A stretch of 35,726 nucleotides of DNA from an uncultured Gammaproteobacteria bacterium. GTDB taxonomy: Bacteria; Patescibacteriota; Microgenomatia; UBA8517. Shown here piece by piece: positions 2,838-28,953 of this stretch; position 1 is the stretch's first letter; the number at the start of each line of letters is the position of its first letter. The DNA is taken from assembly GCA_965231135.1 (NCBI GenBank), contig OZ246419.1, forward strand, positions 147,028 through 182,753, given 5' to 3'. Under the pieces are notes generated by a model. The model was given only the letters and a program-made list of their open reading frames with translations, did no database searches and was not told the DNA's origin. The translations under genes were made by a program, and so were the position numbers.

Positions 2838-4307
2838 ATGAATGAACCAAACCCAACACAACCACTTCAACAACCGAATCCTACTGTTCCAGTAAATCAA
2901 AATATCTTTACTTCTGGACAAAATGTGCAAGATCCTTCGACTCGTGGACTGGCTCAGGACGATAAGAATCGAATTATTCAAAATGTTGCTGGGCCAAAAA
3001 GTTTTGGAGGCAAGAAAATATTAATTGCACTTGGAGCTGTTGTTTTAATTTTAATTATTTTACTTATTGGAAAAGCTTTGTTTACAAAAGTTAACCAAAA
3101 CAAAAATGTAACTTTAACCTGGTGGAATACGACTTTAGACCAAGCTGCAGTTAACCCAATTATTCAAGAATTTGAGCAGCAGAATCCGAACGTGACCATT
3201 AATTTTGAATCACAATCTCAAACTGATTATCGAATAAGACTTGCAAATGCTTTGCAGCAAGGGAAAGGACCGGACATTTTTGAAATACATAATAGCTGGA
3301 TGCCAATGTTTATTAATAGTTTGAGTCCTTCAAATACTGATTTTAGTAATGATTTTTATGCAATAGTTGGAAGTAATTTTAAAGTTAATAATAAATTTTA
3401 TGCGGCACCGCTTTCGTATGATGGAATTGCCCTTTTTGTAAATCAGGATATCTTACAATCTTATGGAAAGACTGCTCCCAAGACTTGGGATGATTTTGTA
3501 AATTTGGCGCAATCTTTAACACTAAGGGATGCAAGCGGGAATATTACACAAGCTGGTGCTGCTATCGGGACAACAAGTAATATTGATTATTGGCAGGATA
3601 TATTTGCGACACTAGCACTCCAAAATGGAGTGAATCTTAATCAGCCAAATTCTACGAACGGAGAAAGTGCACTTACTTTTTATACTAAGTTTTCTAATAT
3701 TTACCATGTTTGGGATGATACTTTGCCGCAATCAACACTTGATTTTGAAAACGGGAAACTTGCTATGTATTTTGGGAAATATACTGATGCTGAAACGATA
3801 AGAAAACAATTTCCAAATTTACATTTTGAAATAGTTCCAGTTCCACAACTTCCAAGCGATGCATCGACTATTCCAAGCGTTTCTTATGCGAGTTATTTTG
3901 CAGATGCAGTTTCTAAACAAAGTGCGAATTCTTCTATGGCATGGAAATTCTTGCAATTTTTGACTACGCAGCAAACTTTGCAAGAACTTAATAAAAATGA
4001 ACAACAAACAAGGGGATATGGAATAATTTATCCGAGAGCTGATATGCAAAATGTACAATTAACTGATCAGACAGCTTCTGCATTTGCTTATCAAGCAAGC
4101 TTTGCACAAAGCTGGTACCTTGCTGATAAAACATTTGACGGAGATAGCGGAATAAATTCACAAGTAGCTAAAGCCTATTCGGATGCAATTGATGCTGCAA
4201 ATGGAAATTCTGGAGGAAATGGTGCAATAGCAACTGCGCAGACAGCATTGCAGCTCATACTTGCTTCTTATGGATTAGTTGCTCCAGTGCCGTCTTCAAC
4301 TCCTTGA
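2838..4307 (+). CDS. Membrane-anchored extracellular solute-binding protein (sugar ABC SBP family 1-like)
   Basis: Motifs LTWW, FEQQNPNVTINF, GPDIF, PKTWDDF, FENGKLAMYF, AWKFLQFL. One TM after a Pro/Gln-rich N-tail. Start moved to ATG 2838. Confidence 0.85.
   Translation: MNEPNPTQPLQQPNPTVPVNQNIFTSGQNVQDPSTRGLAQDDKNRIIQNVAGPKSFGGKKILIALGAVVLILIILLIGKALFTKVNQNKNVTLTWWNTTLDQAAVNPIIQEFEQQNPNVTINFESQSQTDYRIRLANALQQGKGPDIFEIHNSWMPMFINSLSPSNTDFSNDFYAIVGSNFKVNNKFYAAPLSYDGIALFVNQDILQSYGKTAPKTWDDFVNLAQSLTLRDASGNITQAGAAIGTTSNIDYWQDIFATLALQNGVNLNQPNSTNGESALTFYTKFSNIYHVWDDTLPQSTLDFENGKLAMYFGKYTDAETIRKQFPNLHFEIVPVPQLPSDASTIPSVSYASYFADAVSKQSANSSMAWKFLQFLTTQQTLQELNKNEQQTRGYGIIYPRADMQNVQLTDQTASAFAYQASFAQSWYLADKTFDGDSGINSQVAKAYSDAIDAANGNSGGNGAIATAQTALQLILASYGLVAPVPSSTP
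2931..2960 (+). repeat. Dispersed ~30-bp repeat, copy A (in-frame in the SBP gene)
   Basis: GATCCTTCGACTCGTGGACTGGCTCAGGAC shares ATCCTTCGACTCGT and CTCAGGA with the copies at 25518 and 28695. Confidence 0.8.
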
Positions 4308-4329
4308 TCCGTTCGACTACACTCAGGGC
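4306..4329 (+). repeat. Dispersed repeat, short variant D (intergenic, SBP stop to groES promoter)
   Basis: GATCCGTTCGACTACACTCAGGGC has the same ATCC-TTCGACT...CTCAGG skeleton with a shorter middle. Confidence 0.55.
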
Positions 4330-4333
4330 TATA

Positions 4334-4360
4334 GCAGCACTTAGGTATTGACTTTGCTAA
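4334..4360 (+). promoter_or_regulatory. Degenerate CIRCE-like (HrcA) operator
   Basis: GCAGCACTT-N9-CTTTGCTAA versus consensus TTAGCACTC-N9-GAGTGCTAA: 6/9 in each arm, exact 9-nt spacer, just upstream of groES. hrcA is not in the window. Confidence 0.35.
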
Positions 4361-4376
4361 TTTGATTTGATAAATT
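4348..4376 (+). promoter_or_regulatory. Sigma70-type promoter of the groES operon
   Basis: TTGACT (4348-4353), 17-nt spacer, TAAATT (4371-4376) with a TGn extension; 12 nt before the groES ATG. Confidence 0.55.
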
Positions 4377-4388
4377 TCAAGTCTAGAT

Positions 4389-4688
4389 ATGGCTAAAGCA
4401 AATACTTCAAAATTGAATATCACCCCTGCTCCAGGATATTTATTAATAGAACCGCAGGAAGTACAAACAAAAACTTCTGGAGGAATTTATTTAGCAGAAA
4501 ATGTAAACGCAGAAAAACCACAAAAAGGAAAAGTACTTGCAGTTGGAGAAAAAGACGGCAAAAAAGAATCTCCTGCTCAAAAAGGAGACGAAGTTGTTTA
4601 TAAAAAATGGGGAGGAAATGAATATAAACATGAAGGAAAAGAATATACTTTTATAAAGTTTGAGGATATACTAGCGATTATAAAGTAA
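4389..4688 (+). CDS. groES: Co-chaperonin GroES
   Basis: PAPGYLLIEP, mobile loop KTSGGIYL, KGKVLAVG, GDEVVYKKWGGNE, EDILAII. Confidence 0.96.
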   Translation: MAKANTSKLNITPAPGYLLIEPQEVQTKTSGGIYLAENVNAEKPQKGKVLAVGEKDGKKESPAQKGDEVVYKKWGGNEYKHEGKEYTFIKFEDILAIIK

Positions 4689-4689
4689 T

Positions 4690-4974
4690 ATGAAAAAATT
4701 AAATGGATTTAAACAAATTTTGAATGAGACTACTGACTTGATGGTTGAAATGGATGGTAGGTTTACGCGAGCAGAAGCAACTGCCTTGGCTTTTCCAACT
4801 GCAATTAGACAACTCTGGAGTTTGATGGGTTCTGAAATTGGTGGAGAAAAAAGAATTGCTAATGAAGTTTTTGGAATTTCTTATCGAGAATTTGTTGCTG
4901 AATGTGATAGAAGGAAAGATTTGGTGGAGAACTCTAGAGCAATGGGAGCAGCCAAAGAAAGGTTTGGTAATTAA
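4690..4974 (+). CDS. Hypothetical protein, 94 aa (first ORF inside the groESL operon)
   Basis: ATG 1 nt after the groES stop; stop 2 nt before the next ATG. Aligns by eye with the next ORF. Confidence 0.8.
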   Translation: MKKLNGFKQILNETTDLMVEMDGRFTRAEATALAFPTAIRQLWSLMGSEIGGEKRIANEVFGISYREFVAECDRRKDLVENSRAMGAAKERFGN

Positions 4975-4976
4975 TT

Positions 4977-6858
<1,882 letters not shown>

Positions 6859-6900
6859 TTGCTTCTTGAATAAATATCCCTTTTTTAGTTACTATATTTT

Positions 6901-7092
6901 ATGACCGCTGAATTTAACCGACATTATTCTGATAAAGGCGGACATTTTGCAAGAGGAAAGTTTTGGAAGAATTATTCTAAAGATTTAAAACATGTGTCGG
7001 AGGAAGTTTATGATTTATTTGCTTATAATATACCTCTTGGTAAGGATGTAAGAAGATCAATGTTGAGATCGCATTCTTCTGGAAAAAGGTGA
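6901..7092 (+). CDS. Small basic hypothetical protein, 63 aa
   Basis: Fills the gap after groEL. TTGAAT (6866)-18 nt-TACTAT (6890-6895) ends 5 nt before the ATG. Confidence 0.55.
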   Translation: MTAEFNRHYSDKGGHFARGKFWKNYSKDLKHVSEEVYDLFAYNIPLGKDVRRSMLRSHSSGKR

Positions 7093-7104
7093 TATAATTT
7101 TTTT

Positions 7105-7782
7105 ATGCCCAAAGAGGAAAAAGAATACAAGAAAAAACTTCGAGTGGTAACTGAAGAAGTAACAGCGGAACCTGAAGCGAAAATTGAAGAAGTTAAGCAA
7201 ATGGAAACTCCAGAGGAAACAAAAATAGTTGAAGAGGTACCAGTAGATGAAGTGAGTAAAGACGAACCGAGATTTGGAGTACGCGAGACGCAAAATATTG
7301 ATTTAAATAGAAAAGAAGAACGTGGAGCTTTTGTAAAAATATTTTTTGTCACCTTTTTTGCTACACTTTTGGCATTTTTACTTGCTGGAGGAATTTATGT
7401 CTATTTGACTGGGATAAAAGGTGGAAGTGTTAGTCCAACTCCTACTCCAACAACTGAGGCAATTACTGAACCTACGCCGACGCCTACTCCGACAGCAGAT
7501 CTTTCAACTTTCAAGATTTCAGTTTTGAACGGTAATGGAGGAATTGGTGTAGCAACTGCTGCAAAAGCTGTGATTGAAAAAGCTGGATTTACAGTGACGG
7601 ATGTTGGGAATGCTGATAATTTCAATTTTACAGATACCTTAGTCCAAGTAAAAAGTACTGTCCCAAGCGATGTAGTTGAGAAAATTAAAAACGCTCTCTC
7701 TGCAAATTATTCTGTAGCTATGGGAGATCCACTTGATGCAAATAGTAATTTTGATATTGTGATTACTGTTGGGTCGAAGTAG
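7105..7782 (+). CDS. Single-TM protein with Pro/Thr linker and LytR C-terminal (LytR_C) domain
   Basis: Acidic N-tail, TM, PTPTP repeats, then ISVLNGNGGIGVA...GFTVTDVGNADN...DIVITVG. TGATATAAT 6 nt upstream. Confidence 0.85.
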   Translation: MPKEEKEYKKKLRVVTEEVTAEPEAKIEEVKQMETPEETKIVEEVPVDEVSKDEPRFGVRETQNIDLNRKEERGAFVKIFFVTFFATLLAFLLAGGIYVYLTGIKGGSVSPTPTPTTEAITEPTPTPTPTADLSTFKISVLNGNGGIGVATAAKAVIEKAGFTVTDVGNADNFNFTDTLVQVKSTVPSDVVEKIKNALSANYSVAMGDPLDANSNFDIVITVGSK

Positions 7783-8365
7783 TGATATTATCTGTGAGCA
7801 TGTGTGGACCTGCTTTTGGAAAAGGCGGCAAAATAGTCAAAGGATTTACTGCTTTGCCGTTTATATGAATTTCTAAATGTAAATGAGGACCTGTTGCATG
7901 CCCTGTTGCTCCAATAAGGCCAATAATAGTATTCATATCAACTGTATCGCCCTTTTTAACGAATATTTTTGATAAATGAGCATATAAACTTTCCATACCG
8001 TTGCCATTATCTATTAAAACTTCATTTCCATAACCGTCTGTAGTGTAACCCGCAAATTCAACGGTTCCTGATGCGATAGATTTAATAGGATTTCCATAAG
8101 CGTTTGGTAAATCAATCCCTGGATGATAACTGGTGAAAAATTGGCTAATGTACCAGAAATTGACTGGAATTTGAATTTGAGGGGTATCAGTTTTATTTGC
8201 GATATTAAAGGCAATATCTAGCTTTTGCTCTGGAATTACCATGCTTGGAGAGCTTCCTGAAATAGAATTTATAGGAGAAGCTATGGGTAAAGTGATTAAA
8301 GCAAAGGCAAGGTTCCCTGCTAAAAAGGTTTTTACACGTCCCAAAATGTCAGTCTTTTTTATCAT
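7763..8365 (-). CDS. M23-family metallo-endopeptidase
   Basis: HPGIDL (HxxxD), GYGNEVLIDN, YAHL, GATGHATGPHLHLEI (HxH); hydrophobic N-terminal segment. Confidence 0.92.
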   Translation of the reverse strand: MIKKTDILGRVKTFLAGNLAFALITLPIASPINSISGSSPSMVIPEQKLDIAFNIANKTDTPQIQIPVNFWYISQFFTSYHPGIDLPNAYGNPIKSIASGTVEFAGYTTDGYGNEVLIDNGNGMESLYAHLSKIFVKKGDTVDMNTIIGLIGATGHATGPHLHLEIHINGKAVNPLTILPPFPKAGPHMLTDNITTSTQQ

Positions 8366-8366
8366 C

Positions 8367-8426
8367 GTTGAGGCGCCTACTTGCGTGCCTCTTCAACTCA
8401 CAAAAAATCCCGATTTTAATCGGGAT
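8367..8426 (-). other. Two adjacent hairpins in the leader of the M23 gene
   Basis: Perfect inverted repeat ATCCCGATT-TT-AATCGGGAT (8407-8426), followed on the minus strand by a T run. A second imperfect stem, GAGGCGC/GTGCCTC, lies directly before the ATG. Confidence 0.55.
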
Positions 8427-8465
8427 AGGCACAAGTATAAGGAAAATAAGGTATAATGTCAAGTA

Positions 8466-9056
8466 ATGTGGCAGCAAGCTGAGGAGGAATTGTCTAAGGA
8501 TAAATACCTAAAAAAACTGATAGAAAAGTATGGGCATTGTACTATAAATGTTAGGTTAGAAGACGATTATTTTGAAGATCTTTGTAGTGCAATTGTTGGA
8601 CAGCAATTATCTGGAAAAGCGGCTGATGCTATTTTTGCAAAATTCAAGAAAACTGTGATAGAGATTACACCTGAAGCTATTTTGAAAGTTGAGGATCAAG
8701 CTTTGAGAAATTCAGGATTGTCTTGGGCAAAAGTGAAATATATTAAAGATTTAGCAAAAAGAACACATGAGGGAAGTTTGGAAACAAAAAATTTATCAAA
8801 TTTGAGCGATGAGAACATCGAAAAAGAACTTACAGCAGTAAAAGGAATAGGAAAATGGACTGCACAAATGTTTTTGATGTTTACTTTAGGGCGAGCTGAC
8901 ATATTTCCATCTGGCGATTTGGGAATTAAAAATGGAATTAAAAAGTTAACAGGAAAAGAAATGAAACCTGAAGAAATGGAGAAATTTGCTGAGAGATGGA
9001 AGCCTTATAGAACTGTTGCTTCATGGTATATATGGCGCAATTTGGATAATAGATAA
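8466..9056 (+). CDS. DNA-3-methyladenine glycosylase II-like (AlkA/HhH-GPD family)
   Basis: AIVGQQLSGKAA, GLSWAKVKYI, HhH LTAVKGIGKWTAQM, DIFPSGDLG, WKPYRTVASWYIW. Confidence 0.92.
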   Translation: MWQQAEEELSKDKYLKKLIEKYGHCTINVRLEDDYFEDLCSAIVGQQLSGKAADAIFAKFKKTVIEITPEAILKVEDQALRNSGLSWAKVKYIKDLAKRTHEGSLETKNLSNLSDENIEKELTAVKGIGKWTAQMFLMFTLGRADIFPSGDLGIKNGIKKLTGKEMKPEEMEKFAERWKPYRTVASWYIWRNLDNR

Positions 9057-9057
9057 A

Positions 9058-9816
9058 TTATTGGATTGGTTTTTCTGATACTTTAATACTATCTAGGTTA
9101 TAAATTATGAAAGTTGATGCGTCGCCTTTTTCGTATTCTGTTCCTTCTATGTAAATTATTCCATCATATCCTAAATCTTTAACCACAAAATCTGCAAACC
9201 AGTTTCCCCATTGAACTCCATAGTTATTTCCGTTGAAACCTGATGGTGAATTAATTATTGGCTGAGTTCCTAACATTTTTCGAAGGTGAATATTAGATTT
9301 ATCTTCTATTTCTTCTAGATATTTTAAATATTTTTCTTTTTTATCTCGATCGATATATGCTCTATTTATAATTCTTCTTCCTATTCCATTTTTACCTTCA
9401 ACATGAGCTATTTCTGGTCCTAAATCTGGCTTTTCTTCTTTTTCTTGATTAAATCTTTTTTCAAAATAACTTTTCCATTTTTTGATTATGTTTGGAGGAG
9501 TAAATGTATTTCCGCCTTCCTCGTTTCTAAAATCTAGAAATTTGCAGTCATTTGCATAGACTGAATAAACGTGAGTTGGTGGTTTTTTATGAGTGCTATA
9601 GTCATAATGACCCTGTCTTACATGAGAGTATTTTTTTGCCTCTTCTTCTGTGTGAAGTGAATATAAACCAGGACCAAGAGTCCAACTTCCGTCTGTTGTT
9701 GCTGTATTGTAATCATATTTTGGATCAAAATTAAAAGGCTCTTTTGCTCCGTGATACAAAATTCCTGAGTAATAAGTTGTTTCTGGCTCTTCAATTTGAG
9801 ATGTTGTTTCTGTCAC
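9058..9816 (-). CDS. Hypothetical protein with ADP-ribosyltransferase (PARP/ART)-fold-like motifs
   Basis: LYHG, LGPGLY, EEAKKY, VYSVY, LGYDGII, FIIYN. GTG start with TAAACT 6 nt upstream. The fold call is by motif recognition only. Confidence 0.6.
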   Translation of the reverse strand: MTETTSQIEEPETTYYSGILYHGAKEPFNFDPKYDYNTATTDGSWTLGPGLYSLHTEEEAKKYSHVRQGHYDYSTHKKPPTHVYSVYANDCKFLDFRNEEGGNTFTPPNIIKKWKSYFEKRFNQEKEEKPDLGPEIAHVEGKNGIGRRIINRAYIDRDKKEKYLKYLEEIEDKSNIHLRKMLGTQPIINSPSGFNGNNYGVQWGNWFADFVVKDLGYDGIIYIEGTEYEKGDASTFIIYNLDSIKVSEKPIQ

Positions 9817-9830
9817 ATTGAAAGTTTAAC

Positions 9831-11372
9831 ATGAAAGTATACGTGTTAACCAAGATACTTTCTGCCAGTAATTTTGGGCTAAAAACTATTCCAATTGAAG
9901 TGGAAGTTAATGTCTTCAAAAAAGGATTTCCTGGATTTACAATTATTGGACTTCCAAATAAAAGCATTGAAGAAGCTAAAGAGAGAGTAAAAACTGCATT
10001 AATAAACTCTGGAGTAGATTTTCCTAATTTAAAGATTATTGTAAACTTGGCGCCGGCTGATATTCCAAAAGAAGGAAGTGCTTTTGATTTGGCAATTGCT
10101 ATTGGAATTTTGAATAGTTTGGAAGCGATAAAATTACCGAAAGAAAAATCGTATTTCTTTGGGGAACTTTCGCTTGACGGATCGCTTCGGCATACGAAAG
10201 GAACTTTTTTACTCGCGCTTTGTGCAAAAGAAAACAATATTAAAAATGTTTTTATTCCAAAAGAATCTTCCAATGAGGCATCTGCAGTAAACGGTGTGAA
10301 TATTTATCCAGTTGAAACCCTTCAGCAATTAATAATTCATTTAAATGGTGGAGAACAAATAAAACCTGTTAAAAATATTAAAATAAAAGAAAGTGCAAAA
10401 ACACTTAACCCTGAATTTGATTTTGCTGAAATTATTGGACAGGAGCAGGCAAAGAGAGCTTTAATGATTGCTGCAGCTGGAGGACATAATATTTTTATGC
10501 AAGGGCCGCCAGGAAGCGGCAAAACAATGCTTGCAAGAGCGCTTTCTGGAATACTTCCGCCACTTTCTATTGACGAAAGTCTTGAAGTTACAAAAATTTA
10601 TTCAGTAACCGGAAATATTCCATCCGGCTCTTCGCTTATTTTTGATAGACCTTTTAGAAGCTGCCATCATACAACTAGTAGAATTGGACTAGTTGGCGGA
10701 GGAAGTAATCCTCATCCTGGGGAAATATCGCTTGCTCATTTGGGAGTTTTATTTCTAGATGAATTTCCTGAATTTTCAAGATCAACTTTGGAAGCGCTTA
10801 GGCAACCAATGGAAGATGGAATTGTAAACATATCACGTGCTGCAGGAAGTATTTCGTATCCAGCTCAATTTATGCTAGTTGCTGCGGCAAACCCATGTCC
10901 ATGTGGATACTTAGGTGATCCGAAAAGAGAATGTAAATGCTCACCACGGATGATTATGAAATATACTTCAAAACTTTCTGGACCTCTGATGGACCGTATT
11001 GATTTGCATATTAATGTGCCGGCAGTAGATGTTGATAAACTTATTGATACAAAACAAAATATAAAAACGCAAACTTCAAAAGAAATACGTGAGAAAGTAA
11101 TGAATGCCAGGAAAATTCAGCAGAATCGATTTAAAAAAGAGAAGATTTTTATGAATGCACATATGAAGAATAAACATGTGAAGAATTTAAAGATAGAACC
11201 TTCTGCCCTTTTAATTCTTAAGCAAGCAGTAAACGCTTATAATTTATCAGCAAGAACTTATTTTAGATTAATAAAAGTCAGCCAAACTATTGCAGATCTT
11301 GAGATGGCAAATTCTATTTTGGATAAACATGTTGCTGAGGCACTTCAGTATCGTATTCGTGTAGAGAATTAA
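9831..11372 (+). CDS. comM: YifB/ComM Mg-chelatase-like AAA+ ATPase
   Basis: IIVNLAPADIPKEGSAFDLAIA, GPPGSGKTMLA, PGEISLAHLGVLFLDE, NPCPCG, LSGPLMDRID, EALQYR. True start may be GTG at 9843. Confidence 0.95.
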   Translation: MKVYVLTKILSASNFGLKTIPIEVEVNVFKKGFPGFTIIGLPNKSIEEAKERVKTALINSGVDFPNLKIIVNLAPADIPKEGSAFDLAIAIGILNSLEAIKLPKEKSYFFGELSLDGSLRHTKGTFLLALCAKENNIKNVFIPKESSNEASAVNGVNIYPVETLQQLIIHLNGGEQIKPVKNIKIKESAKTLNPEFDFAEIIGQEQAKRALMIAAAGGHNIFMQGPPGSGKTMLARALSGILPPLSIDESLEVTKIYSVTGNIPSGSSLIFDRPFRSCHHTTSRIGLVGGGSNPHPGEISLAHLGVLFLDEFPEFSRSTLEALRQPMEDGIVNISRAAGSISYPAQFMLVAAANPCPCGYLGDPKRECKCSPRMIMKYTSKLSGPLMDRIDLHINVPAVDVDKLIDTKQNIKTQTSKEIREKVMNARKIQQNRFKKEKIFMNAHMKNKHVKNLKIEPSALLILKQAVNAYNLSARTYFRLIKVSQTIADLEMANSILDKHVAEALQYRIRVEN

Positions 11373-11848: not shown

Positions 11849-12220
11849 ATGAAACAGAAGAATTATGAAACTGGGAAGTTGGGGGAAAGAATTGCAGAGG
11901 ACTTCTTGACGAAAAATAATTATAAATTGATTGCGAGAAATTTTCATACAAGGTTTGGCGAAATTGATTTAATTTTTTCTAAAAATAATAAACTAATTTT
12001 TGTTGAAGTAAAATTAAAAGTTGGGGAGGATTTTGGGACTCCGGAGGAAATGATAAATAGACATAAAATAAGACAAATTGAGATGACAGGACAAAGCTTT
12101 TTATTAAAATATCCAGAATATGAGAAGTTTTATGAATCACTTCAAATAGATGCAATATGTATTGTAACTGATGAAAATCACAATATTATAAGAATAAATC
12201 ATTATGAAAACATTTCTTGA
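11849..12220 (+). CDS. yraN: YraN/UPF0102 family nuclease-fold protein
   Basis: GKLGERIAEDFL, ARNFHTRFGEIDLI, LIFVEVK, QIDAICI. Confidence 0.92.
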   Translation: MKQKNYETGKLGERIAEDFLTKNNYKLIARNFHTRFGEIDLIFSKNNKLIFVEVKLKVGEDFGTPEEMINRHKIRQIEMTGQSFLLKYPEYEKFYESLQIDAICIVTDENHNIIRINHYENIS

Positions 12221-13079
12221 CTATTCGATTCAAAATATTAAGTTTGGAGATAAAAGTTATCCAAAAAACTTATCTAAAATAAAGAAGCCGCCGAAGGAAA
12301 TTTTTTATCGAGGTGAGCTAAGCAACAATATTTTGGAGAAAACAATTGCAATTGTTGGGACACGACAAGTGACAAATTACGGAAAGCAAGCGATTGATGA
12401 ATTTGTAAGTGCCTTTGTTTCTCAAGGTGTTACAACAATTTCTGGATTTATGTATGGAGTGGATACTGAAGTACATAATAAAACTTTGGAATACGGAGGT
12501 AGAACGATCTCCATATTTGGTAATGGGCTTGATTATGTTTATCCTCCTGAAAACGATAAATTGTATCTGAAGATTTTGGAAAATAAGGGAATAGTGATGA
12601 GTGAGTATGAAAAAGATATGAAACCGCAACTTTGGACATACCCAGCGCGCAACAGAATTGTGAGCGCTTTATCTACAATTGGAGTTTTAGTAATAGAAGC
12701 AGATATTGATAGCGGCTCGATGATAACTGCAAAGATAGCTTACGAGCAGAAGAAAAATGTATGGGCAATTCCTGGGCAAATAACGTCAAAGTCGAGCAAT
12801 GGAACGAATTATCTTATCAAAAAAGGACTAGCGAAAATGGCGACTAGTCCAGCTGATATTGTATCTTTGAGTAAACAAACTGAAGAAAAAATTCAGCTGA
12901 AACTCGACGGTTTGGAAGCCGAAGTTTATGCGATAATAGAAAACGAAAACTTGTCGATTGATGAAATTTCTATGAAACTTGGAAAGGATATTGTTGAAAT
13001 AAGCGCTACTTTAACAATGATGGCAATAAAAGGAATTGTTAACGAAATTGGAGGAAAATATTTTATTTCGAAAGTCTGA
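12204..13079 (+). CDS. dprA: DNA-processing protein DprA
   Basis: YPKNLSKIKKPP, IAIVGTR, ISGFMYGVDTEVH, PARNRIVS, SGSMITA, C-terminal winged-helix segment. Confidence 0.95.
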   Translation: MKTFLDYSIQNIKFGDKSYPKNLSKIKKPPKEIFYRGELSNNILEKTIAIVGTRQVTNYGKQAIDEFVSAFVSQGVTTISGFMYGVDTEVHNKTLEYGGRTISIFGNGLDYVYPPENDKLYLKILENKGIVMSEYEKDMKPQLWTYPARNRIVSALSTIGVLVIEADIDSGSMITAKIAYEQKKNVWAIPGQITSKSSNGTNYLIKKGLAKMATSPADIVSLSKQTEEKIQLKLDGLEAEVYAIIENENLSIDEISMKLGKDIVEISATLTMMAIKGIVNEIGGKYFISKV

Positions 13080-21395: not shown

Positions 21396-21563
21396 ATTAA
21401 GTTGATATTAAAACAATAATTAATTTGCTTGTCAAACGCTAGATACAAAACGCCTTAATTATGAGACATTTTGGGGACTTGAAAAGCTTGTAATAAAACT
21501 ACAACAATGATAAATATCTGCCCAAAATTCATACCCTTTTGGGCTAAAAAGGGGGTGATTAAT

Positions 21564-22160: not shown

Positions 22161-22174
22161 GTCTCAGGAAAAAA

Positions 22175-22513: not shown

Positions 22514-22823
22514 ACAGGAGTATTGTAATCACGATTGCCGTTAAAAGAAAGAAGTTTACGAAATTACCAAGACCAAAATATCGCAAGATTACAAAAATGG
22601 TTAAGGCAATTGTGATAATTAAGTTTTTGATAGAAAAATAAACGCATAAGAAAAATACAAAAAAGAAAAAGGGAATAATGCCAAAAGTTTTCGGGTCTAT
22701 AAAATAAATAATAAACGCCAGAATTAACCAGAAAAAAAGAGGAATTAGAATTTTTGAAATTGGGAAATTAAATTTCTTGGTTTCGGTTTTTTGTTCTTGT
22801 TTTCTTCGGCGAGAAGGAGGCAT
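22485..22823 (-). CDS. Small membrane protein with basic N-terminus
   Basis: About 4 hydrophobic segments; TATAAT 5 nt upstream of the ATG. Confidence 0.7.
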   Translation of the reverse strand: MPPSRRRKQEQKTETKKFNFPISKILIPLFFWLILAFIIYFIDPKTFGIIPFFFFVFFLCVYFSIKNLIITIALTIFVILRYFGLGNFVNFFLLTAIVITILLYESNSKKAN

Positions 22824-22838
22824 AATGTATTATAACCT

Positions 22839-23759
22839 ATGGAATTACTACTGATATTAGTTTTAATAATTGGATTTGGAATTGTTATTTATTTGCTTAT
22901 TCAAAAGCCAAAAACTTCAAACGATTTACTCGAGTATTTGAAATCTACAAATAATAGATTAGATCGCCAAGGAATGGATTTTAATCAAAGACTTGATAAT
23001 GCAGCGCGCGTAATTTCTGATGTCCAAAAAAACATCGGAGAGATGAGCGAAATAGGGCGCAGTATGCGCGATTTTCAAGAACTTTTACAATCTCCAAAAC
23101 TGCGAGGAAATGTTGGAGAACATATTTTGAATGAAATACTTGAGCAAAATTTGCCAAAATCTTCTTTTAATTTGCAGTATGCCTTTAAAAATGGCCAGAA
23201 AGTAGACGTTGCGATAAAAACTTCTGCTGGAATAATTCCTGTGGATTCCAAGTTCCCATTAGAAAATTTCAGAAAATTAAATAGTGCAAAATTAGAAACT
23301 GAAAAAAGAATTGCTGAAAAAGATTTCGAGAGAGATGTAAAACATCATATTGATGATATTTCTAAAAAATATATTTTAACTGATGAAGGAACAATTGATT
23401 ATGCACTGATGTATGTTCCAAATGAAGCGATTTATTATGAAATTGTAAACAATGTAAGTTTGTTTGAATATTCACAAAAGATGAGAGTACTTCCGGTTTC
23501 TCCAACAACTTTTTATGCATATATGCGAGCGATACTGATGAGTTTTGAAGGGCAAAAAATTGAAGCGAAAGCGAAAGAAATATTAAACGCCCTTCGGGCG
23601 ATAAAACAAGATTATGAGAAGACAGAAGAAGATTTAAATGTTATGCAAAGACATTTAAATAGTGCAGTTAATAAAATGAATGATGTATTTAATTCATTTG
23701 GAAAGTTAGGTGGAAAAATTTCTGCAACGAAGAATTTGGGAGAAGATACAAAAATCTAG
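22839..23759 (+). CDS. rmuC: DNA recombination protein RmuC
   Basis: N-terminal TM and coiled coil, KLRGNVGE, IPVDSKFPLENF, HIDDISKKYI, DYALMYVPNEAIY, VSPTT. Confidence 0.93.
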   Translation: MELLLILVLIIGFGIVIYLLIQKPKTSNDLLEYLKSTNNRLDRQGMDFNQRLDNAARVISDVQKNIGEMSEIGRSMRDFQELLQSPKLRGNVGEHILNEILEQNLPKSSFNLQYAFKNGQKVDVAIKTSAGIIPVDSKFPLENFRKLNSAKLETEKRIAEKDFERDVKHHIDDISKKYILTDEGTIDYALMYVPNEAIYYEIVNNVSLFEYSQKMRVLPVSPTTFYAYMRAILMSFEGQKIEAKAKEILNALRAIKQDYEKTEEDLNVMQRHLNSAVNKMNDVFNSFGKLGGKISATKNLGEDTKI

Positions 23760-23941
23760 ATTAGTAAGGAATTGGAGTACCGGTTCGAATTTATCTTACT
23801 CTTCGGACTTTTTAATGAGAGGCTGACAATTAATCTCCTTCCAATTCAAATTATGGATTTTATTATTTAAAGAAAAATTACAAATTCTTCCATAATTTAT
23901 GGGCTTACTTTGATAATTATACAGCGTGATACAATTGGTTT

Positions 23942-24451
23942 ATGAAAATAATTTTATATATGGCTATTTCTGCAAACGGAATGATTGCGAAAGCTGATCA
24001 TGACACTCCATGGAGTGATGATGAATTTGAAAGTTATAAAAACAAAGTAATTGAAATTGGAAATTTAGTAATTGGCAAAACTACTTATGATTTAACTATT
24101 GAGGATAATGGTTTTGATAATTTGAGAAATCCGTTTATTGTTGTTTTAACAACTTCTGGTGACAAACCAAGAAATAAAAATACAATTTTTGTAAAAAGTT
24201 TTAATGAAGCAATTAAAGTTTCTCAGGAAAAAAAGTTTGAAAACATGCTTATTGCAGGTGGAGGAAAAATGAATAAAGTTGCTTTGGAATCGGGAAAAAT
24301 TGATGAAATATTTTTAGATGTGGAACCATTTATTTTTGGAAAAGGAATTAATCTCTTTGCAGAGTCCGATATGAACTTAAATTTGAAGTTAATAGGAACA
24401 AAAAAAGTAGGAAAAAATGGAATACAACTTCATTATGAAGTTACTAAATAA
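23942..24451 (+). CDS. Dihydrofolate reductase-like / RibD C-terminal family protein
   Basis: ILYMAISANGMIA, LVIGKTTY, IAGGG, IDEIFLDVEPFIFGKGI, IQLHY. Confidence 0.85.
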   Translation: MKIILYMAISANGMIAKADHDTPWSDDEFESYKNKVIEIGNLVIGKTTYDLTIEDNGFDNLRNPFIVVLTTSGDKPRNKNTIFVKSFNEAIKVSQEKKFENMLIAGGGKMNKVALESGKIDEIFLDVEPFIFGKGINLFAESDMNLNLKLIGTKKVGKNGIQLHYEVTK

Positions 24452-24470
24452 CTAGTGATACAATGGCTTC

Positions 24471-27335
24471 GTGGAGAAAACTCTCAATAAACAACAACTT
24501 CAGGCGATAAAACATAAAAATGGTCCCTTACTTGTAATTGCTGGAGCTGGAACTGGGAAAACTACTGTTATTACTGAACGAGTTAAATTTTTAATTGAAA
24601 AAAAATTGGCAAAACCCGAAGAGATACTTGCACTTACCTTTACAGAAAAGGCGGCTCGAGAAATGGAAGAGAGAATTGATATTGCACTCCCATATGGATA
24701 TACCAATATGTGGATTCTTACTTTCCATGCATTTTGCGAGAGAATCTTAAGAAGGGAAGCGCTACAGATTGGAATGGATCCAAGATTTAAATTGATGACA
24801 ACGGGCGAGACTGTGCAGTTGATTCGCCAAAATTTGTTTAAATTTAAATTAAGTTATTATCGACCGCTTGGAAATCCTTATAAATTTATTGATGGGATGA
24901 TACAACATTTTTCCAGACTTCAAGATGAAGATATTAAAACTGATGAATATTTAAAATGGGCAAGGAAACAAGAGGACAAAAAATGGTTGGAACTAGCCAA
25001 TGCATATCGCACATATGAGGAATTAAAAATTGCAAATGGTTTTATGGATTTTGGAGATTTGATTACAAAAACTATAAAACTTTTTCGTGACAGGCCAAAT
25101 GTTTTGAAAGAATACAAACGCCAATTTAAATATATTTTGATTGATGAATTTCAGGATACGAATTTCTCTCAAAATGAGCTGGCGCTCATTTTGGCAAAAC
25201 AAAACAAAACACAGAATATAACAGTAGTGGGTGATGATGATCAAAGCGTTTATCGATTTCGGGGAGCGGCGATAAGTAATATTATTCAATTTAGAAAAAA
25301 TTTTCCTAAGACAAAAGTTGTCACTCTTACTCAAAACTATCGATCGACACAAGAGATATTGGATAGAGCATATGAACTTATACAACACAATAATCCAGAT
25401 AGATTGGAAGTAATTGAGAATGTTAACAAAAAATTAATTTCAAACAAAAAAGATGGAGAGAAAATAGAATTTATTCACACAGGACGGGTTGAAAATGAAG
25501 CTGAAATGGTTGCTAAAGAAATCCTTCGACTCGTAAAACTCCCTCAGGATCGATATGAATATCGAGATTTTGCGATTTTGGTGCGAGCGAATAATCACGC
25601 AGAACCATTCATTAGAGCATTACAGAGACAAGGAATTCCTTATCAATTTTTAGGACCTGGAAAACTTTTCCGGCAAAGTGAAATAGTTGATTTAATTTCT
25701 TATCTTCAAGTTCTTTATGATTTTGATAACAGTACGGCTGCGTTTCGGATTTTTTCTTTATCAGTGTTTGGTGTTAACTCAAGAGATTTGGCTAAGATTA
25801 GTAATTTTGCAAGAAGGCAAAACTTAAGTTATTTTGAAGCAGCTGAAAAAGCAGGTGAAATAAACATAAGCATTGACTCTAAAGAAAAAATTAAAAAAAT
25901 TGTTGAGATGGTCCACAAACATTTGGGGTTAGTTAATAAAGAAAGTGCGGGACAAATTTTGTATTATTTTTTGGAGGAGACAAAATTACTTAATGATTTA
26001 TTAAACCCAGAAAATGCTGAAGCTGCAAAGAGAGCAAATAATATTTCTAAATTTTTTGATAAAATAAAAACTTATGAAGTTGATCATCCAGGAAGTACAG
26101 GTGTTTTTGATGTTGTTGATTATATAAATCTTGCAATGGATGTAGGGGAATCACCGCTTGCCGCTGACAGCGATTGGAATGAAATAAACGTTGTAAATAT
26201 TTTAACGGTGCATTCTTCTAAAGGACTAGAATTTCCTGTTGTGTTTTTAGTTAACTTGGTGGCACAAAGATTTCCAACAATTGAGCGACGCGAGCAGATT
26301 CCAATTCCTGATGCACTCATAAAAGAAGTTTTACCAACTGGAGATTTTCACCAACAAGAAGAGAGAAGGCTTTTTTATGTGGGAATGACACGTGCAAAAG
26401 ATAAACTTTATTTTAGCGCAGCCAATTTTTACGGGGAGGCAAAAAGAGAAAAAAAGTTGTCACCCTTTATATTCGAATCGCTGGGCAAATCAGCTCTCGA
26501 TGCTGACGCATCGGTAAAGCAGAACGCAAAAATAGAACAACTGAGTTTTTTAAGTTTTGCAAACAAAAATGAAATTGCGGAAAACAAAAAAGATGAGAAT
26601 AATGCGAGGCTAAAAATTAACTATTTGTCTTATTCGCAAATTGAAACTTTTGAGATTTGTCCACTTCATTTTAAATTAAAATATATTTTAAAAATTCCAA
26701 CACAGCCAATTGCTGCAGCAAGCTTTGGAACAAGTATTCACAATACGCTTCGTGATTTCTATGAAAGCAAAAAAAATGCTGAAAAAGATTTACTTAAACT
26801 TTTTAAGAAAAACTGGATACATGAAGGGTTTTTGGATAAAAAACAGAACCAAGAATTTTTTGATAAAGGGAAAAAATATCTAAAAGATTTTTACAAATTA
26901 CAATTTGATAAAAATAAATTGCCAACATTTTTGGAACAAGATTTTGTTATACCAATTAGCAAAGATTTGAAAGTTGGAGGGAGAATTGATCGTGTTGATA
27001 AATTGCCTGATGGAACTATTGAAATCTGGGACTATAAAACAGGTATGAATGTCCCAACTCAAAAAGAGATAGATCGCAATTTGCAATTAACTATTTATGC
27101 GCTTGCTGCACAGGATTTGTTTAAGAAAAAACCAGAAAAGGTTAAATTATCTTTGTACTATTTTGAGAACCAAAAAAAAATTACAACAGTGAGAACAAAA
27201 AGCGATTTGATAAAAGCAAAAGAAGAGATTTTAAGAATAAAAAAAGAAATCGAGAAATCAGAGTTTAAATGTAGTGGAAGTATGCTTTGTGAATTTTGTG
27301 AGTTCAAAATGTTTTGTCAGGCGGATTTAGAGTGA
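24471..27335 (+). CDS. UvrD/PcrA-like SF1 helicase fused to a C-terminal PD-(D/E)XK nuclease with Fe-S cysteines (AddA/AdnAB-like)
   Basis: AGAGTGKT, DEFQD, VGDDDQSVYRFRGA, QNYRS, HSSKGLEF, EERRLFYVGMTRA; nuclease GRIDRVD..WDYKTG, QLTIY; CPLHF plus CSGSMLCEFCEFKMFC. Confidence 0.92.
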   Translation: MEKTLNKQQLQAIKHKNGPLLVIAGAGTGKTTVITERVKFLIEKKLAKPEEILALTFTEKAAREMEERIDIALPYGYTNMWILTFHAFCERILRREALQIGMDPRFKLMTTGETVQLIRQNLFKFKLSYYRPLGNPYKFIDGMIQHFSRLQDEDIKTDEYLKWARKQEDKKWLELANAYRTYEELKIANGFMDFGDLITKTIKLFRDRPNVLKEYKRQFKYILIDEFQDTNFSQNELALILAKQNKTQNITVVGDDDQSVYRFRGAAISNIIQFRKNFPKTKVVTLTQNYRSTQEILDRAYELIQHNNPDRLEVIENVNKKLISNKKDGEKIEFIHTGRVENEAEMVAKEILRLVKLPQDRYEYRDFAILVRANNHAEPFIRALQRQGIPYQFLGPGKLFRQSEIVDLISYLQVLYDFDNSTAAFRIFSLSVFGVNSRDLAKISNFARRQNLSYFEAAEKAGEINISIDSKEKIKKIVEMVHKHLGLVNKESAGQILYYFLEETKLLNDLLNPENAEAAKRANNISKFFDKIKTYEVDHPGSTGVFDVVDYINLAMDVGESPLAADSDWNEINVVNILTVHSSKGLEFPVVFLVNLVAQRFPTIERREQIPIPDALIKEVLPTGDFHQQEERRLFYVGMTRAKDKLYFSAANFYGEAKREKKLSPFIFESLGKSALDADASVKQNAKIEQLSFLSFANKNEIAENKKDENNARLKINYLSYSQIETFEICPLHFKLKYILKIPTQPIAAASFGTSIHNTLRDFYESKKNAEKDLLKLFKKNWIHEGFLDKKQNQEFFDKGKKYLKDFYKLQFDKNKLPTFLEQDFVIPISKDLKVGGRIDRVDKLPDGTIEIWDYKTGMNVPTQKEIDRNLQLTIYALAAQDLFKKKPEKVKLSLYYFENQKKITTVRTKSDLIKAKEEILRIKKEIEKSEFKCSGSMLCEFCEFKMFCQADLE
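25518..25550 (+). repeat. Dispersed repeat, copy B (in-frame in the helicase-nuclease gene)
   Basis: GAAATCCTTCGACTCGTAAAACTCCCTCAGGAT, 32/33 identical to 28695-28727. Confidence 0.9.
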
Positions 27336-27649
27336 TTATCGACTTCGTAAATATTTAATTGACCCTTGACTGGAAAAGGTTTTATTACTCTTAAATTTCT
27401 AATTAACCAAGCATATAATTTTGGAGAATATTTAAAGCATGCTGCTTTTTCATCACTTTTTTTCATTCTTCGAATATCGTAGAGATTGACTATGCAAAGA
27501 GCAAAACCAGCTGGTTCTATTTTGGGATTTTGTGAGGAGCAAATTAGTAAGTCTCCCCGATAATTTGTTTTCCATTTCCTTGTTTCAATTGTTTTAATTC
27601 CATCTCTTATTAAATTAGCGTAAGGCTGTTTGAGAGAGATGGCTTTCAT
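27317..27649 (-). CDS. ASCH-domain protein
   Basis: MKAISLKQPYANLIRDGIKTIETRKW..YRGDLLICSS..LYAWL..FPVKGQLNIY. Start at ATG 27649 in an ATGA overlap with the upstream gene. Confidence 0.9.
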   Translation of the reverse strand: MKAISLKQPYANLIRDGIKTIETRKWKTNYRGDLLICSSQNPKIEPAGFALCIVNLYDIRRMKKSDEKAACFKYSPKLYAWLIRNLRVIKPFPVKGQLNIYEVDNHSKSA

Positions 27650-28107
27650 AGTTTTGGGATAACATACCCCAAAACATCGAAATCTGGGTGCCAAATTTCA
27701 ATCATGTCTTCTTTGAAATTTCTAATGAATGGTGATTTATCCTTCCATTTATTTTTGAATTCTTGAAAATTATCTATTTCATAATCACCACAACCAACTT
27801 GGAGACGATATGGATCAACGATTCGAACACCTAAATAATTAATATTATAATTTAGTATTTTTTCTTGGACTTTAATATATAAACTAGTTTCGGAACTAAA
27901 CGGTTCCCTTGGACCTTTTTTGGAAATTAAATCATATAAATAATCATATTCATCAAAATAATGAGGAAATATTTTGAGGGTTGTAATGGGAAGTTTCTCT
28001 TGAAAGATTTCTAATGAAAGTTTTTCAAGTTCTGAAGTTATATATTCTAAAGCCTTGTTTAAATCTTTTTCATTTTTGATGGGACTAAAGGGATAAATTG
28101 TTTTCAT
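27646..28107 (-). CDS. Hypothetical protein, 153 aa
   Basis: Abuts the upstream stop (0 nt gap) and overlaps the ASCH start; no family recognised. Confidence 0.75.
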   Translation of the reverse strand: MKTIYPFSPIKNEKDLNKALEYITSELEKLSLEIFQEKLPITTLKIFPHYFDEYDYLYDLISKKGPREPFSSETSLYIKVQEKILNYNINYLGVRIVDPYRLQVGCGDYEIDNFQEFKNKWKDKSPFIRNFKEDMIEIWHPDFDVLGYVIPKL

Positions 28108-28953
28108 TTAGAATATTTTAATATTAAATTTGGATTTTACAAACAGGCCTGGATAACTAACTTCAGTTTTACTAAAACCAGATTTGAATTTGGTAAAGCC
28201 CTGCCAACTCTCTAATGGAAACCTTGTGTCGTAAATGCCATCGAAATCGAAAGTTTTCATTCCTAATTTTTTAGACAGTAAAATTGCATGCCAGGTTAAA
28301 AGAGTGGGGGCGAAATTTTTGCGGCCTTCATTATTTGCTGCGGCGTACATATAATAACTGACTTTATCAAAAAATAATAGAAATAGAACTGCAATTATTT
28401 TGTTATCTTTTTTAGCGAGAAGGATTTTTGAATTTTCTCCAAAGGATTTTTGCATAGCGATAATATTTTTTTGCTGACTAAAAAAAGGAAAACGATTTTT
28501 CTCGAAATTTTCTCTCCAAAAATTAGTGAAGTCTAAGACGTTGTCACTCTCAACTATTTCAACACGTTTTAAAAAGGATGTGCGCGTGATGTTGTAGCGA
28601 ACTTTTTGGGAGAAAGATTTTAGTAGTTCGTTTTCTGATTTGTTTAAATTAATAATTAAAGTTTTGGTTGGAAGGGATGGAGAGTTTGAGGGATGAAATC
28701 CTTCGACTCGTAAAACTCGCTCAGGATGTCGTGGGTACACTCCAGGTTCGATTGAGAATTGAAATGGATGGTATTTATTTTCAATAAATGTAATAATTTT
28801 TTGATTTAAAATTTCAGAGCGTTGAAGTTTGACAAAACTTCCGAGAACTGGAAAATACTTAATGTAAATATAAATATTATTAATTTTTTCTATTTTCCAA
28901 TTGATAGATTTTAGATAATTTGCCCAGTCAGGGGATTGACGAAGATCTGCCAT
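28108..28953 (-). CDS. FemABX/MurM-like GNAT peptidyl transferase (divergent copy)
   Basis: LRQSPDWANY, TKTLIINLNKSENELLKSFSQKVRYNI, YYMYAA, PTLLTWHAI, DFDGI, FTKFKSGF. Confidence 0.82.
   Translation of the reverse strand: MADLRQSPDWANYLKSINWKIEKINNIYIYIKYFPVLGSFVKLQRSEILNQKIITFIENKYHPFQFSIEPGVYPRHPERVLRVEGFHPSNSPSLPTKTLIINLNKSENELLKSFSQKVRYNITRTSFLKRVEIVESDNVLDFTNFWRENFEKNRFPFFSQQKNIIAMQKSFGENSKILLAKKDNKIIAVLFLLFFDKVSYYMYAAANNEGRKNFAPTLLTWHAILLSKKLGMKTFDFDGIYDTRFPLESWQGFTKFKSGFSKTEVSYPGLFVKSKFNIKIF
28695..28727 (+). repeat. Dispersed repeat, copy C (in-frame, antisense, in the FemABX-like gene)
   Basis: GAAATCCTTCGACTCGTAAAACTCGCTCAGGAT; on the coding strand it spans HPERVLRVEGF. Confidence 0.9.

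Follow-up and report, generated by a model that had tools for sequence, protein, structure and literature searches.

In-frame hairpin repeats in a Patescibacteria contig as probable orphan partners of Ssn-type GIY-YIG nucleases

How could one short DNA sequence come to lie in-frame inside three unrelated proteins, on either strand and in more than one frame? The question is raised by a dispersed repeat of ~30 bp in a 35,726-nt stretch of a Patescibacteria (Microgenomates) contig, hereafter the window. The original prediction described the repeat as a recently active, non-autonomous mini-element that adds peptide loops to proteins.

Copies of the repeat in the window

The pattern ATCC(T/G)TTCGACT…CTCAGG(A/G) occurs four times in the window, always on the + strand. 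The copies, given with the strand predicted to be the nuclease target, and their host genes are as follows.

Copy A, 2932-2959, (-) as predicted target strand: ATCCTTCGACTCGTGGACTGGCTCAGGA; GA-type hairpin, probably Ssn-related, in-frame in the solute-binding protein (DPSTRGLAQD)
Copy B, 25521-25549, (-): 29-nt hairpin motif, in-frame in the UvrD-like helicase (EILRLVKLPQD)
Copy C, 28698-28726, (-), on which the FemAB-family gene is encoded: 29-nt hairpin motif, peptide HPERVLRVEGF
Copy D, 4307-4328, (-): short degenerate variant ATCCGTTCGACTACACTCAGGG, running from the TGA stop of the solute-binding protein (SBP) gene into the intergenic region
Host gene 1, 2838-4307, +: membrane-anchored extracellular solute-binding protein, SBP_bac_1 (Pfam; gene call of 489 aa)
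Host gene 2, 24471-27335, +: UvrD/PcrA-type helicase fused to a PD-(D/E)XK nuclease domain (Pfam, homologs)
Host gene 3, 28108-28953, -: FemAB-family protein (peptidoglycan bridge aminoacyl-transferase-like), first of a tandem pair (Pfam, synteny)

All four copies were located at the positions first predicted. Three of the four are intragenic and in-frame, in unrelated host genes and with differing frames and strands. Copies B and C are identical at 28/29 positions, and at 32/33 over 25518-25550 and 28695-28727, on opposite coding strands, confirming that the similarity is at the DNA level. Four matches to TTCGACT-N3-14-CTCAGG were obtained against 0.01 expected (100 shuffles), and two to the 29-mer against 0.00 expected. 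The inner loop of copy A is unlike those of B and C; copy D starts inside the SBP stop codon (TGA), and an extra C breaks its outer stem. Half-site scans of the window and flanks revealed no further copies, leaving four across the ~56 kb examined and none in 20 kb of flanks. No duplications were found flanking copies A-D, nor any terminal inverted repeat beyond the 5-bp stem.

The dnaA/dnaN genes are located ~8-10 kb left of the window, the GC skew is positive, and the four copies lie on the leading strand. Competence and recombination genes in the window encode DprA, a ComM-like protein and RmuC. An Rfam scan of the window at the gathering threshold returned only tRNA-Cys, and a literature search with the motif sequence gave no match.

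A hairpin family across phyla

A search for ATCCTTCGACTCGT-N4-12-CTCAGGA detected at least 119 loci across many phyla. The matches listed came from Clostridia, Fibrobacter, Acidobacteriota, Verrucomicrobiota, Gammaproteobacteria, Omnitrophota, Planctomycetota, Bacteroidota and many Patescibacteria; among them, 94 of 123 were 29 nt long, and TGACA followed on the + strand in 71 of 123. In a scan of viral contigs, the form with a gap of 3 was over-represented (33/124). The 29-nt family consensus is rG-ATCCTTCGACTCGT-nnnn-CTCGCTCAGGA-TGACA, whose opposite strand, (T)GTCAT-YYY-GA-[stem-loop]-GA-RRR-ATC, keeps a 5' GTCAT tail and a 3' ATC. The - strand element in the window can be written as (GTCAT)-TCCT-GA-GC-GA-GT.nnn.AC-GA-GTC-GA-AGGA-TY. 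The conserved 5' flank (H)GTCAT upstream of the palindrome is absent from the - strand of all four window copies, which at this position have TCGTC (A), CGATC (B), GACAT (C, one mismatch from GTCAT) and TAGCC (D). The 5' tail of copy A is degenerate (TATCGTCCTGAG), and copy B reads TATCGATCCTGAG without the GTCAT tail.

The self-complementary ends noted in the original prediction are real (ATCCT/AGGAT), and the window copies also have an inner GT..AC pair. Thermodynamic DNA folding of single copies gave z ~0 against shuffles on both strands; we suspect that the folding energy model scores tandem G.A pairs poorly. The case for a hairpin comes from covariation across the family and not from the folding energy of single copies. 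The outer stem triplet is Watson-Crick in 182 of 190 instances with six triplet types, against 37.5 expected, and compensatory GTCC..GGAC and GTGC..GCAC pairs are seen in the 33-nt variants. As judged from these sequences, the element is a rod-like hairpin with tandem G.A pairs lying between its Watson-Crick segments.

In Rfam searches at E<=1, none of eight motif-bearing loci had a match covering the motif. The reverse strand resembles a hammerhead ribozyme (CUGA-N-GA[stem II]GAAA), which was rejected by inspection on account of an extra nucleotide, GAG for GAA and no three-way junction. Readings as a K-turn, a T-loop/tRNA-like element or attC were also rejected by inspection.

Association with small GIY-YIG nuclease genes

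The sole recurrent neighbour of the motif loci was the gene of a small GIY-YIG protein (PF01541), present within 2.5 kb in only 6 of the 119 motif loci listed. The motif abutted its start codon in two loci, one of them in a Daviesbacteria MAG. No transposase, including Y1, recurred beside the 119 loci listed. In the reverse test, a GA-type hairpin was located within 300 bp of the gene in 48 of 80 GIY-YIG loci. The density of GA-type hairpins beside Ssn-like genes showed a 6-10-fold excess, and TGTCAT[CT][CT] occurred at 3.26/kb near the GIY-YIG gene versus 0.50/kb far from it, while control words were not enriched. The search for a small nuclease gene flanked by the repeat, suggested along with the original prediction, had a positive outcome in that small GIY-YIG (Ssn-like) genes carry the hairpin at their 5' end. 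The profile search for GIY-YIG proteins used two sequences, and the proteins are termed Ssn-like here as putative members of the family of N. meningitidis SsnA (CDD cd10448). Ssn-like homologs are abundant in Microgenomates (71-85% identical to the query), and many of their ORFs have N-terminal extensions reading ..LSERSESKG, which is the hairpin translated. Around one Daviesbacteria ssn gene followed across samples, the downstream genes were constant and the upstream genes variable, with a tRNA adjoining, which is not proof of mobility.

The pairing of such repeats with a nuclease has already been published and the class is not new. The Ssn nuclease was described together with Ssn-related motifs (SRM), including NTS/dRS3 of Neisseria (Chenal et al., 2025, Nat Commun, PMC11893778). 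SsnA binds and cleaves NTS hairpins as ssDNA only, strand-specifically and upstream of the palindrome, the GTCAT tail being critical for cleavage, and it does not bind RNA (PMC11893778). At least one SRM was present in 71% of ssnA homolog regions, Rickettsia was among the genomes with >300 SRM copies, NTS modulates transformation in Neisseria, and only 2% of NTS are intragenic in N. meningitidis (PMC11893778).

The GA-type family shares several features with SRM. It consists of short, oriented, semi-palindromic hairpins in the published range of ~20-50 nt, whose family consensus has (C/T)GTCAT as the 5' flank and an ATC-type sequence as the 3' flank. It is dispersed, multi-copy and found in many phyla, and clusters next to small single-domain GIY-YIG genes (~80-100 aa), on one side or on both. 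Homologs from the same GIY-YIG protein set are flanked by NTS-like hairpins, TGTCATTCCCGC-GAAA-GCGGGAATCCA. In contrast to SRM, the GA-type stem is broken up by tandem G.A pairs (TCCT-GA-GC...GA-AGGA), three of the four window copies are in-frame inside genes versus the 2% of N. meningitidis NTS, the window copies have no GTCAT tail, and the host belongs to Patescibacteria, a group absent from PMC11893778. The published degenerate SRM search sequence, HGTCWYN(0-2)YYVSBRHN(0-5)WNVSBRGN(0-2)RNCYNB (PMC11893778), had 0 matches in the window; NTS and NTS-like hairpins pass it, whereas canonical 29-nt and short GA-type hairpins fail. Hairpins fitting it were found in 9 of the 80 GIY-YIG loci, where the tandem-GA subclass that it misses is ~5x commoner, and genome counts based on the published pattern are therefore probably underestimates.

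The window and the 10 kb to each side of it contained no GIY-YIG gene or transposase, in agreement with the original prediction that no mobiliser is present, and a non-autonomous element with a partner encoded elsewhere is supported. No Ssn-like gene of the 810,692-bp source contig was among the best 120 homologs, and any Ssn partner encoded in this genome is putative. We consider it likely that copies A-D are orphans belonging to a hairpin family that spans phyla, the repeats of which are cis partners of Ssn GIY-YIG ssDNA nucleases.

The assignment to a MITE, REP/RAYT or Rickettsia palindromic element (RPE) kind fared less well. As in REP/REPIN-RAYT systems, a short tagged hairpin is combined with a single trans-acting ssDNA enzyme, orphan copies far exceed the enzyme genes, and copies are homogeneous within a genome. 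However, the tag is GTCAT instead of GTAG/CGTC (GTAG is absent from the window copies and from the family matches), the partner is a GIY-YIG nuclease and not a Y1 (HUH) transposase, and three of four copies are intragenic whereas REP are extragenic. MITEs were not matched, there being no TIR or TSD and, at the helicase site, a replacement of equal length or +2 codons. RPEs are likewise palindromic repeats tolerated in-frame in conserved genes, with passenger peptides in surface segments. RPEs are ~100-150 bp, whereas the window element is 20-33 nt and replaces sequence without added length at the helicase site; this distinction is drawn by description.

Replacement of host codons and its possible origins

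Copy A sits in the variable N-terminal cytoplasmic tail of the SBP; its peptide was found in 0 of 119 SBP homologs, whose N-terminal tails are hypervariable. Copy C is in a length-variable linker of the FemAB-family protein, where the site exceeds that of orthologs by 4 to 13 codons. The codons of copy B align with native helix residues of PcrA with a gap of only 2 aa, and the site differs from orthologs by +0 codons (90%-identical) and by +2 and +4 (two others). From these alignments, the helicase copy is read as a replacement of native codons, not a simple insertion, and the loop-adding insertion first proposed does not hold here. In other Patescibacteria, in-frame copies were detected in CysRS, GatB, a CoA-ligase, a radical-SAM protein and TsaD, and one was found in the alanine racemase of an Omnitrophota MAG. 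In CysRS, TsaD and alanine racemase of these genomes, the motif lies within clear extra segments. In this lineage, the motif overwrites ~20-29 nt of tolerant, length-variable protein segments, in-frame.

A recently active MITE- or RPE-like mini-transposon, that is, a discrete ~30-bp insertion adding peptide loops with a transposase in trans, would agree with the near-identity of B and C on opposite coding strands, with the longer FemAB site, and with the extra segments in CysRS, TsaD and alanine racemase (mostly Patescibacteria, and Omnitrophota). This is unlikely given that target-site duplications and longer terminal inverted repeats are missing, that native helicase codons are replaced, that distant lineages are occupied at the same helicase site, and that no transposase recurs near the 119 copies listed. 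The term 'recently active' drew on the B/C identity only. Occupancy of the same site could also mean that the coding sequence of the helicase copy is ancestral, passed on vertically and since lost by most lineages, with the other copies due to chance or convergence. Motif-type peptides were indeed present at this site in 11 of 120 helicase orthologs, so that the refuting outcome named with the original prediction, orthologs that share the peptides, partly applies; orthologs at 62-69% identity share EILR(L/Q)..QD in the same position and frame. However, carriers are scattered in at least eight places in the tree beside 85-90% identical non-carriers, and at least four canonical motif subtypes occupy the same codons in these lineages. 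The motif arms are ~92% identical although the genes are far more diverged, the arm Leu/Arg codons (CTT, CGA, CTC) were judged unusual for a 33% GC genome, and the same DNA is found in three frames and recurs among unrelated genes and phyla. An ancestral origin is hardly credible in light of these data.

The repeat might instead be a nucleic-acid signal selected by the host (uptake or anti-uptake, replication or architecture, mRNA structure) that arose by point mutation like USS/DUS. These are also often intragenic in several frames with tolerated peptides, and are linked to natural transformation. The leading-strand position of all four copies, the DprA, ComM-like and RmuC genes, the equal-length replacement in the helicase and the effect of the related NTS on Neisseria transformation are in favour of such a signal, but the sharing of one strand by all four carries little weight (p = 0.125). 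At 9-12 nt, USS/DUS are lineage-specific and serve as binding sites of the uptake machinery, whereas the motif is ~29 nt, cross-phylum and nuclease-linked; the same 29-nt sequence in many phyla departs from the lineage specificity of an uptake signal. With ~24 specified bases, it is implausible that point mutation produced the motif at least eight times at one site, and in a pair of helicase genes with 81% nucleotide identity the whole patch differs at once. The missing Rfam family and the inability of SsnA to bind RNA also argue against it, and we regard a host-selected signal as very unlikely.

Equal-length replacement between 90%-identical helicase orthologs suggests a copying process distinct from cut-and-paste insertion. 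For orphan partners of Ssn nucleases, the published biochemistry suggests by analogy that the cognate nuclease would bind the - strand as ssDNA only and cut just upstream of the hairpin. The predicted ssDNA target of the Microgenomates Ssn-like protein is the - strand sequence TGTCATCCTGAGCGAGTGAAACGAGTCGAAGGATC. Since the GTCAT tail is lost, the window copies would probably be weakly bound, or bound but uncut. Sources of such ssDNA are incoming transforming DNA and replication or repair intermediates. Spread and homogenisation may proceed by gene-conversion-like copying of short patches templated by other genomic copies, probably following Ssn action on ssDNA in analogy to REP/RAYT. Selection would retain only in-frame, stop-free and structurally tolerated events, and the encoded peptides would be passengers.

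More tentatively, Ssn-type hairpins of Patescibacteria may spread when short patches of partly compatible coding sequence are rewritten from a template, with repeated 'homing' to the same codon positions within essential genes (in this contig the UvrD-like helicase; CysRS, GatB and TsaD elsewhere). Copy orientation might be constrained to keep the nuclease-sensitive strand off the lagging-strand template. We hold this extension to be possible but doubtful. If true, templated rewriting would represent a mode of repeat spread akin to gene conversion, by which the surfaces of proteins are remodelled.

The replacement mode bears on how REP-like repeats spread. In the small, gene-dense genomes of Patescibacteria, the hairpins are found in-frame inside essential genes, with several subtypes recurring at the same codons. 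The motifs also yield recurrent peptide strings (…LRMT, …AQDD, PER..VEG and LSE..SKD) in annotated proteins and spurious ORFs.

Four copies of the motif in the window

Four instances of one motif were found on the + strand of the window, at the places the original prediction had named:

Copy A, 2932-2959, + strand: ATCCTTCGACTCGTGGACTGGCTCAGGA; in the ORF of an SBP_bac_1 solute-binding protein (SBP), peptide DPSTRGLAQD
Copy B, 25521-25549, + strand: ATCCTTCGACTCGTAAAACTCCCTCAGGA; in the ORF of a UvrD/PcrA helicase with a fused PD-(D/E)XK nuclease, peptide EILRLVKLPQD
Copy C, 28698-28726, + strand: one base different from copy B; in a FemAB-family ORF on the - strand, peptide HPERVLRVEGF
Copy D, 4307-4328, + strand: ATCCGTTCGACTACACTCAGGG; a short variant that begins in the TGA stop of the SBP gene

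The pattern TTCGACT-N3-14-CTCAGG matched four times in the window against 0.01 expected, and the 29-mer twice against 0 expected. Copies B and C were identical at 32 of 33 positions, flanks included, and no additional copies were detected in 10 kb on each side of the window. Across the three host ORFs the motif DNA is translated in three ways, from two frames of the + strand and one of the - strand. The proposed DNA-level mini-element tolerated in frame was borne out, the same DNA lying in three frames of unrelated genes.

The motif family and its small nuclease neighbor

The motif is not specific to the genome of the window. A loose scan of viral contigs gave 124 matches, among which the form with a gap of 3 was over-represented (33/124); a consensus, gATCCTTCGACTnCGCTCAGGATGACa, emerged from it, and longer forms also occurred. 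Canonical copies were present in viral-classified IMG/VR contigs (L001-L120), for example L043 and L112, which carried two each with conserved flanks. When one genome per species was scanned more strictly (ATCCTTCGACTCGT-N4-12-CTCAGGA), at least 119 loci were detected, belonging to Clostridia, Fibrobacter, Acidobacteriota, Verrucomicrobiota, Gammaproteobacteria, Omnitrophota, Planctomycetota, Bacteroidota, Coriobacteriia and many Patescibacteria. The motif was 29 nt long in 94 of the 123 matches listed and directly followed by TGACA in 71 of them. Its middle is a variable mini-hairpin, GT-nnn-AC, and longer middles (GTCC-TTC-GGAC or GTGC-TTC-GCAC) displayed compensatory changes. Read on the opposite strand, TGTCA-TCCT-GA-GC-GA-GT.GAA.AC-GA-GTC-GA-AGGA-TC, it is predicted to fold as a rod-like hairpin containing two tandem G.A steps, here called the GA-type hairpin; no Rfam family for it was found. 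In the Omnitrophota MAG RS_9_43 the 29-nt motif lay within an extended, conserved repeat (…gtaaactgcggggaattaaacccgag[motif]tcaattcgactacagatttttctcc…) that recurred across at least 12 contigs (L134, L137, L139, L141, L161, L167, L180, L186, L202, L203, L226 and L229), and Oscillospiraceae RGIG7678 had seven copies with near-identical flanks.

All ORFs within 2.5 kb of 119 listed motif copies were clustered, and only one small recurrent neighbor family emerged, at six of these loci: proteins of roughly 80-100 aa with a GIY-YIG domain (PF01541). In L138 and in the Candidatus Daviesbacteria locus L221 the hairpin touches the GIY-YIG start codon in sense orientation, and at L181 and L231 arrays of partial units adjoin the gene. 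These arrays (L231:7300-7720 and L181:6000-6100), tandem CGACTC-[variable hairpin]-CGCTCAGGATGACA-A-rich spacer units beside the Ssn-like genes, resemble BIME clusters. In reverse, 80 metagenome loci were fetched with the GIY-YIG protein as query. The generalized motif lay within 400 bp of the GIY-YIG gene in 16 of 20 matches, with flanks reaching up to 3 kb. The word TGTCAT[CT][CT] occurred nearby in 68 of the 80 loci, at 3.26/kb inside 300 bp of the gene versus 0.50/kb outside, and control words near the genes showed no enrichment across the 80 loci. The GA-type hairpin (GTCAT-YYY-GA…GA-RRR-AT) was found within 300 bp of the gene in 48/80 loci, which answers the proposed search for a small nuclease gene flanked by the repeat. 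Its outer triplets, of six types, paired perfectly in 182 of 190 instances, where independence would predict 37.5. The predicted trans partner holds at the family level, as small GIY-YIG genes with an adjoining hairpin.

The L221 protein had 2,230 homologs, the best 120 of which were 71-85% identical and nearly all from Microgenomates-type Patescibacteria. Many extended homolog ORFs begin with …LSERSESKG, the hairpin in translation, indicating that the Microgenomates-type lineage of the window has this putative nuclease family together with the GA-type hairpin subclass; the window's own genome may encode such a nuclease. A Daviesbacteria Ssn-like gene (L329:3860-4010) lies immediately after a tRNA gene, with only the hairpin 3' half, GTCGAAGGAT, ahead of its start codon. 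In L327-L332 the Ssn-like gene marks the edge of a strain-variable region whose content differed between samples: some had restriction-modification genes there, and another had a second GIY-YIG gene.

Other GIY-YIG genes of the 80-locus set had TGTCATTCCCGC-GAAA-GCGGGAATCCA just upstream, a sequence known from Neisseria as the NTS/dRS3 repeat. The SsnA protein, 94 aa long with GIY-YIG as its single domain (CDD cd10448), binds NTS hairpins only as ssDNA and only one of the two strands, and its cut falls upstream of the palindrome (Chenal et al., 2025, PMC11893778). Among ssnA homolog regions, 71% contain one or more Ssn-related motifs (SRM), the NTS-ssnA-NTS layout looks IS-like, and the SsnA/NTS system modulates transformation in N. 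meningitidis (PMC11893778). The window repeat belongs to this class described in 2025 and hence is not categorically new. However, the published degenerate SRM pattern, which matches NTS-type hairpins, matched neither the GA-type hairpin nor any window copy; 9 of the 80 loci contained a match to it, while the GA type was found in 48. In N. meningitidis just 2% of the NTS repeats are intragenic, whereas copies A, B and C lie in frame in genes; Patescibacteria and in-frame copies are not mentioned in that paper (PMC11893778). New are the tandem-GA subclass beyond the reach of the published pattern, its intragenic in-frame residence in Patescibacteria, sequence replacement in place of insertion, and the way identical codons are occupied again and again. 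The window finding is real as to DNA-level mini-element, trans partner and in-frame tolerance; the mode of repeat spread is inferred.

As an oligonucleotide, the predicted Ssn target-strand form of the GA-type hairpin would be TGTCATCCTGAGCGAGTGAAACGAGTCGAAGGATC. For all four window copies the predicted target strand is the - strand, on which the hairpin bodies of copies A, B and C are intact and the 5' tail is degenerate: GTCAT is absent from copies A, B and D, and copy C has GACAT, with one mismatch. Since the canonical tail reads …GGA TGA… in one frame, it may have been lost through coding constraints. Judging from the published SsnA biochemistry, Ssn may still bind the window copies, but efficient cutting would be unlikely.

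Coding sites occupied by the motif

Compared with PcrA structures, the helicase motif codons paired with native residues (GRIREAVERGERRY), leaving a gap of just 2 aa. The peptide EILR(L/Q)…QD occupied the same position and frame in 11 of 120 helicase orthologs, all helicase homologs being Patescibacteria of Microgenomates/Woesebacteria type. These carriers fell in at least eight separate places of a distance tree, beside non-carriers 85-90% identical to them. The carrier P0045 (23-nt motif) and the motif-free P0088 (90% aa and 81% nt identity) were equal in length and differed by one replaced patch of about 27 nt, while P0046 (29-nt motif) had two more codons than P0023 and the window helicase four more than P0002. 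Two further carriers had other subtypes, ATCCTTCGGCAAGCTCAGGAC and, with a full tail and partly in another frame, ATCCTATCGCTTCGCTCCAGGATGACA, giving at least four subtypes at the same codons. Sharing of the peptide type by 11 orthologs could be read as ancestral sequence, but the scattered carriers and their subtypes make it likelier that the site was repeatedly rewritten, each genome drawing on its own repeats, than that it simply passed down by vertical descent. The original prediction of in-frame insertion stands as to frame, whereas the 2-aa gap and the equal-length P0045/P0088 patch speak against simple insertion.

This helicase position also held other inserts: three orthologs had a 10-aa EDPPSHEASEGQ and a fourth had LTASEAG (P0058, P0100, P0106 and P0115), so that the site seems to be a hotspot for short insertions in general. 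Some orthologs of the two UvrD-like helicases contained inteins with Hint/Intein_splicing domains, which bring these proteins to about 1,300 aa (P0014, P0032, P0047; L244:15194-18124).

The FemAB site is a linker of variable length, 18 codons in the window versus 14 (motif absent) in one syntenic ortholog and five in a second. The gene is one of a tandem FemAB-family pair (28108-29891), whose shorter, more divergent member alone carries the motif. The SBP peptide DPSTRGLAQD was found in none of 119 homologs, whose N-terminal tail is hypervariable; the event is therefore judged lineage-specific, and tail variability blocks finer resolution.

Long ORFs also span the 29-nt motif in low-GC genomes elsewhere. 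Hosts were CysRS (Saccharibacteria), GatB, a succinyl-CoA-ligase-like protein (Daviesbacteria), a radical-SAM protein (Moranbacteria), TsaD, twice (Berkelbacteria), and alanine racemase (Omnitrophota). In-frame residence is thus, on sequence grounds, a recurring habit of the 29-nt GA-type subclass, mainly in Patescibacteria. In one Berkelbacteria TsaD gene (L165) two inserts, CHPEREQRVEGS and CHPEQSEGS, derive from the hairpin, and the same peptide, DSSTPPGGSAQNDK, follows both, which suggests a composite repeat unit.

Genomic setting

A contig 100% identical to the window in their overlap (L325) carries rnpA-yidD-yidC-jag followed by dnaA-dnaN (L325:18975-21029), which puts them outside the window, some 8-10 kb to its left. 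The window therefore probably adjoins the replication origin. GC skew was positive across the entire window, and with dnaA-dnaN to the left the + strand is taken as the leading strand. Genes related to ssDNA, competence and recombination were also observed in the window:

9831-11372: ComM-like Mg-chelatase
11849-12220: UPF0102/YraN-like nuclease
12204-13079: DprA
22839-23759: RmuC

In Neisseria, Ssn nucleases act in natural transformation (PMC11893778).
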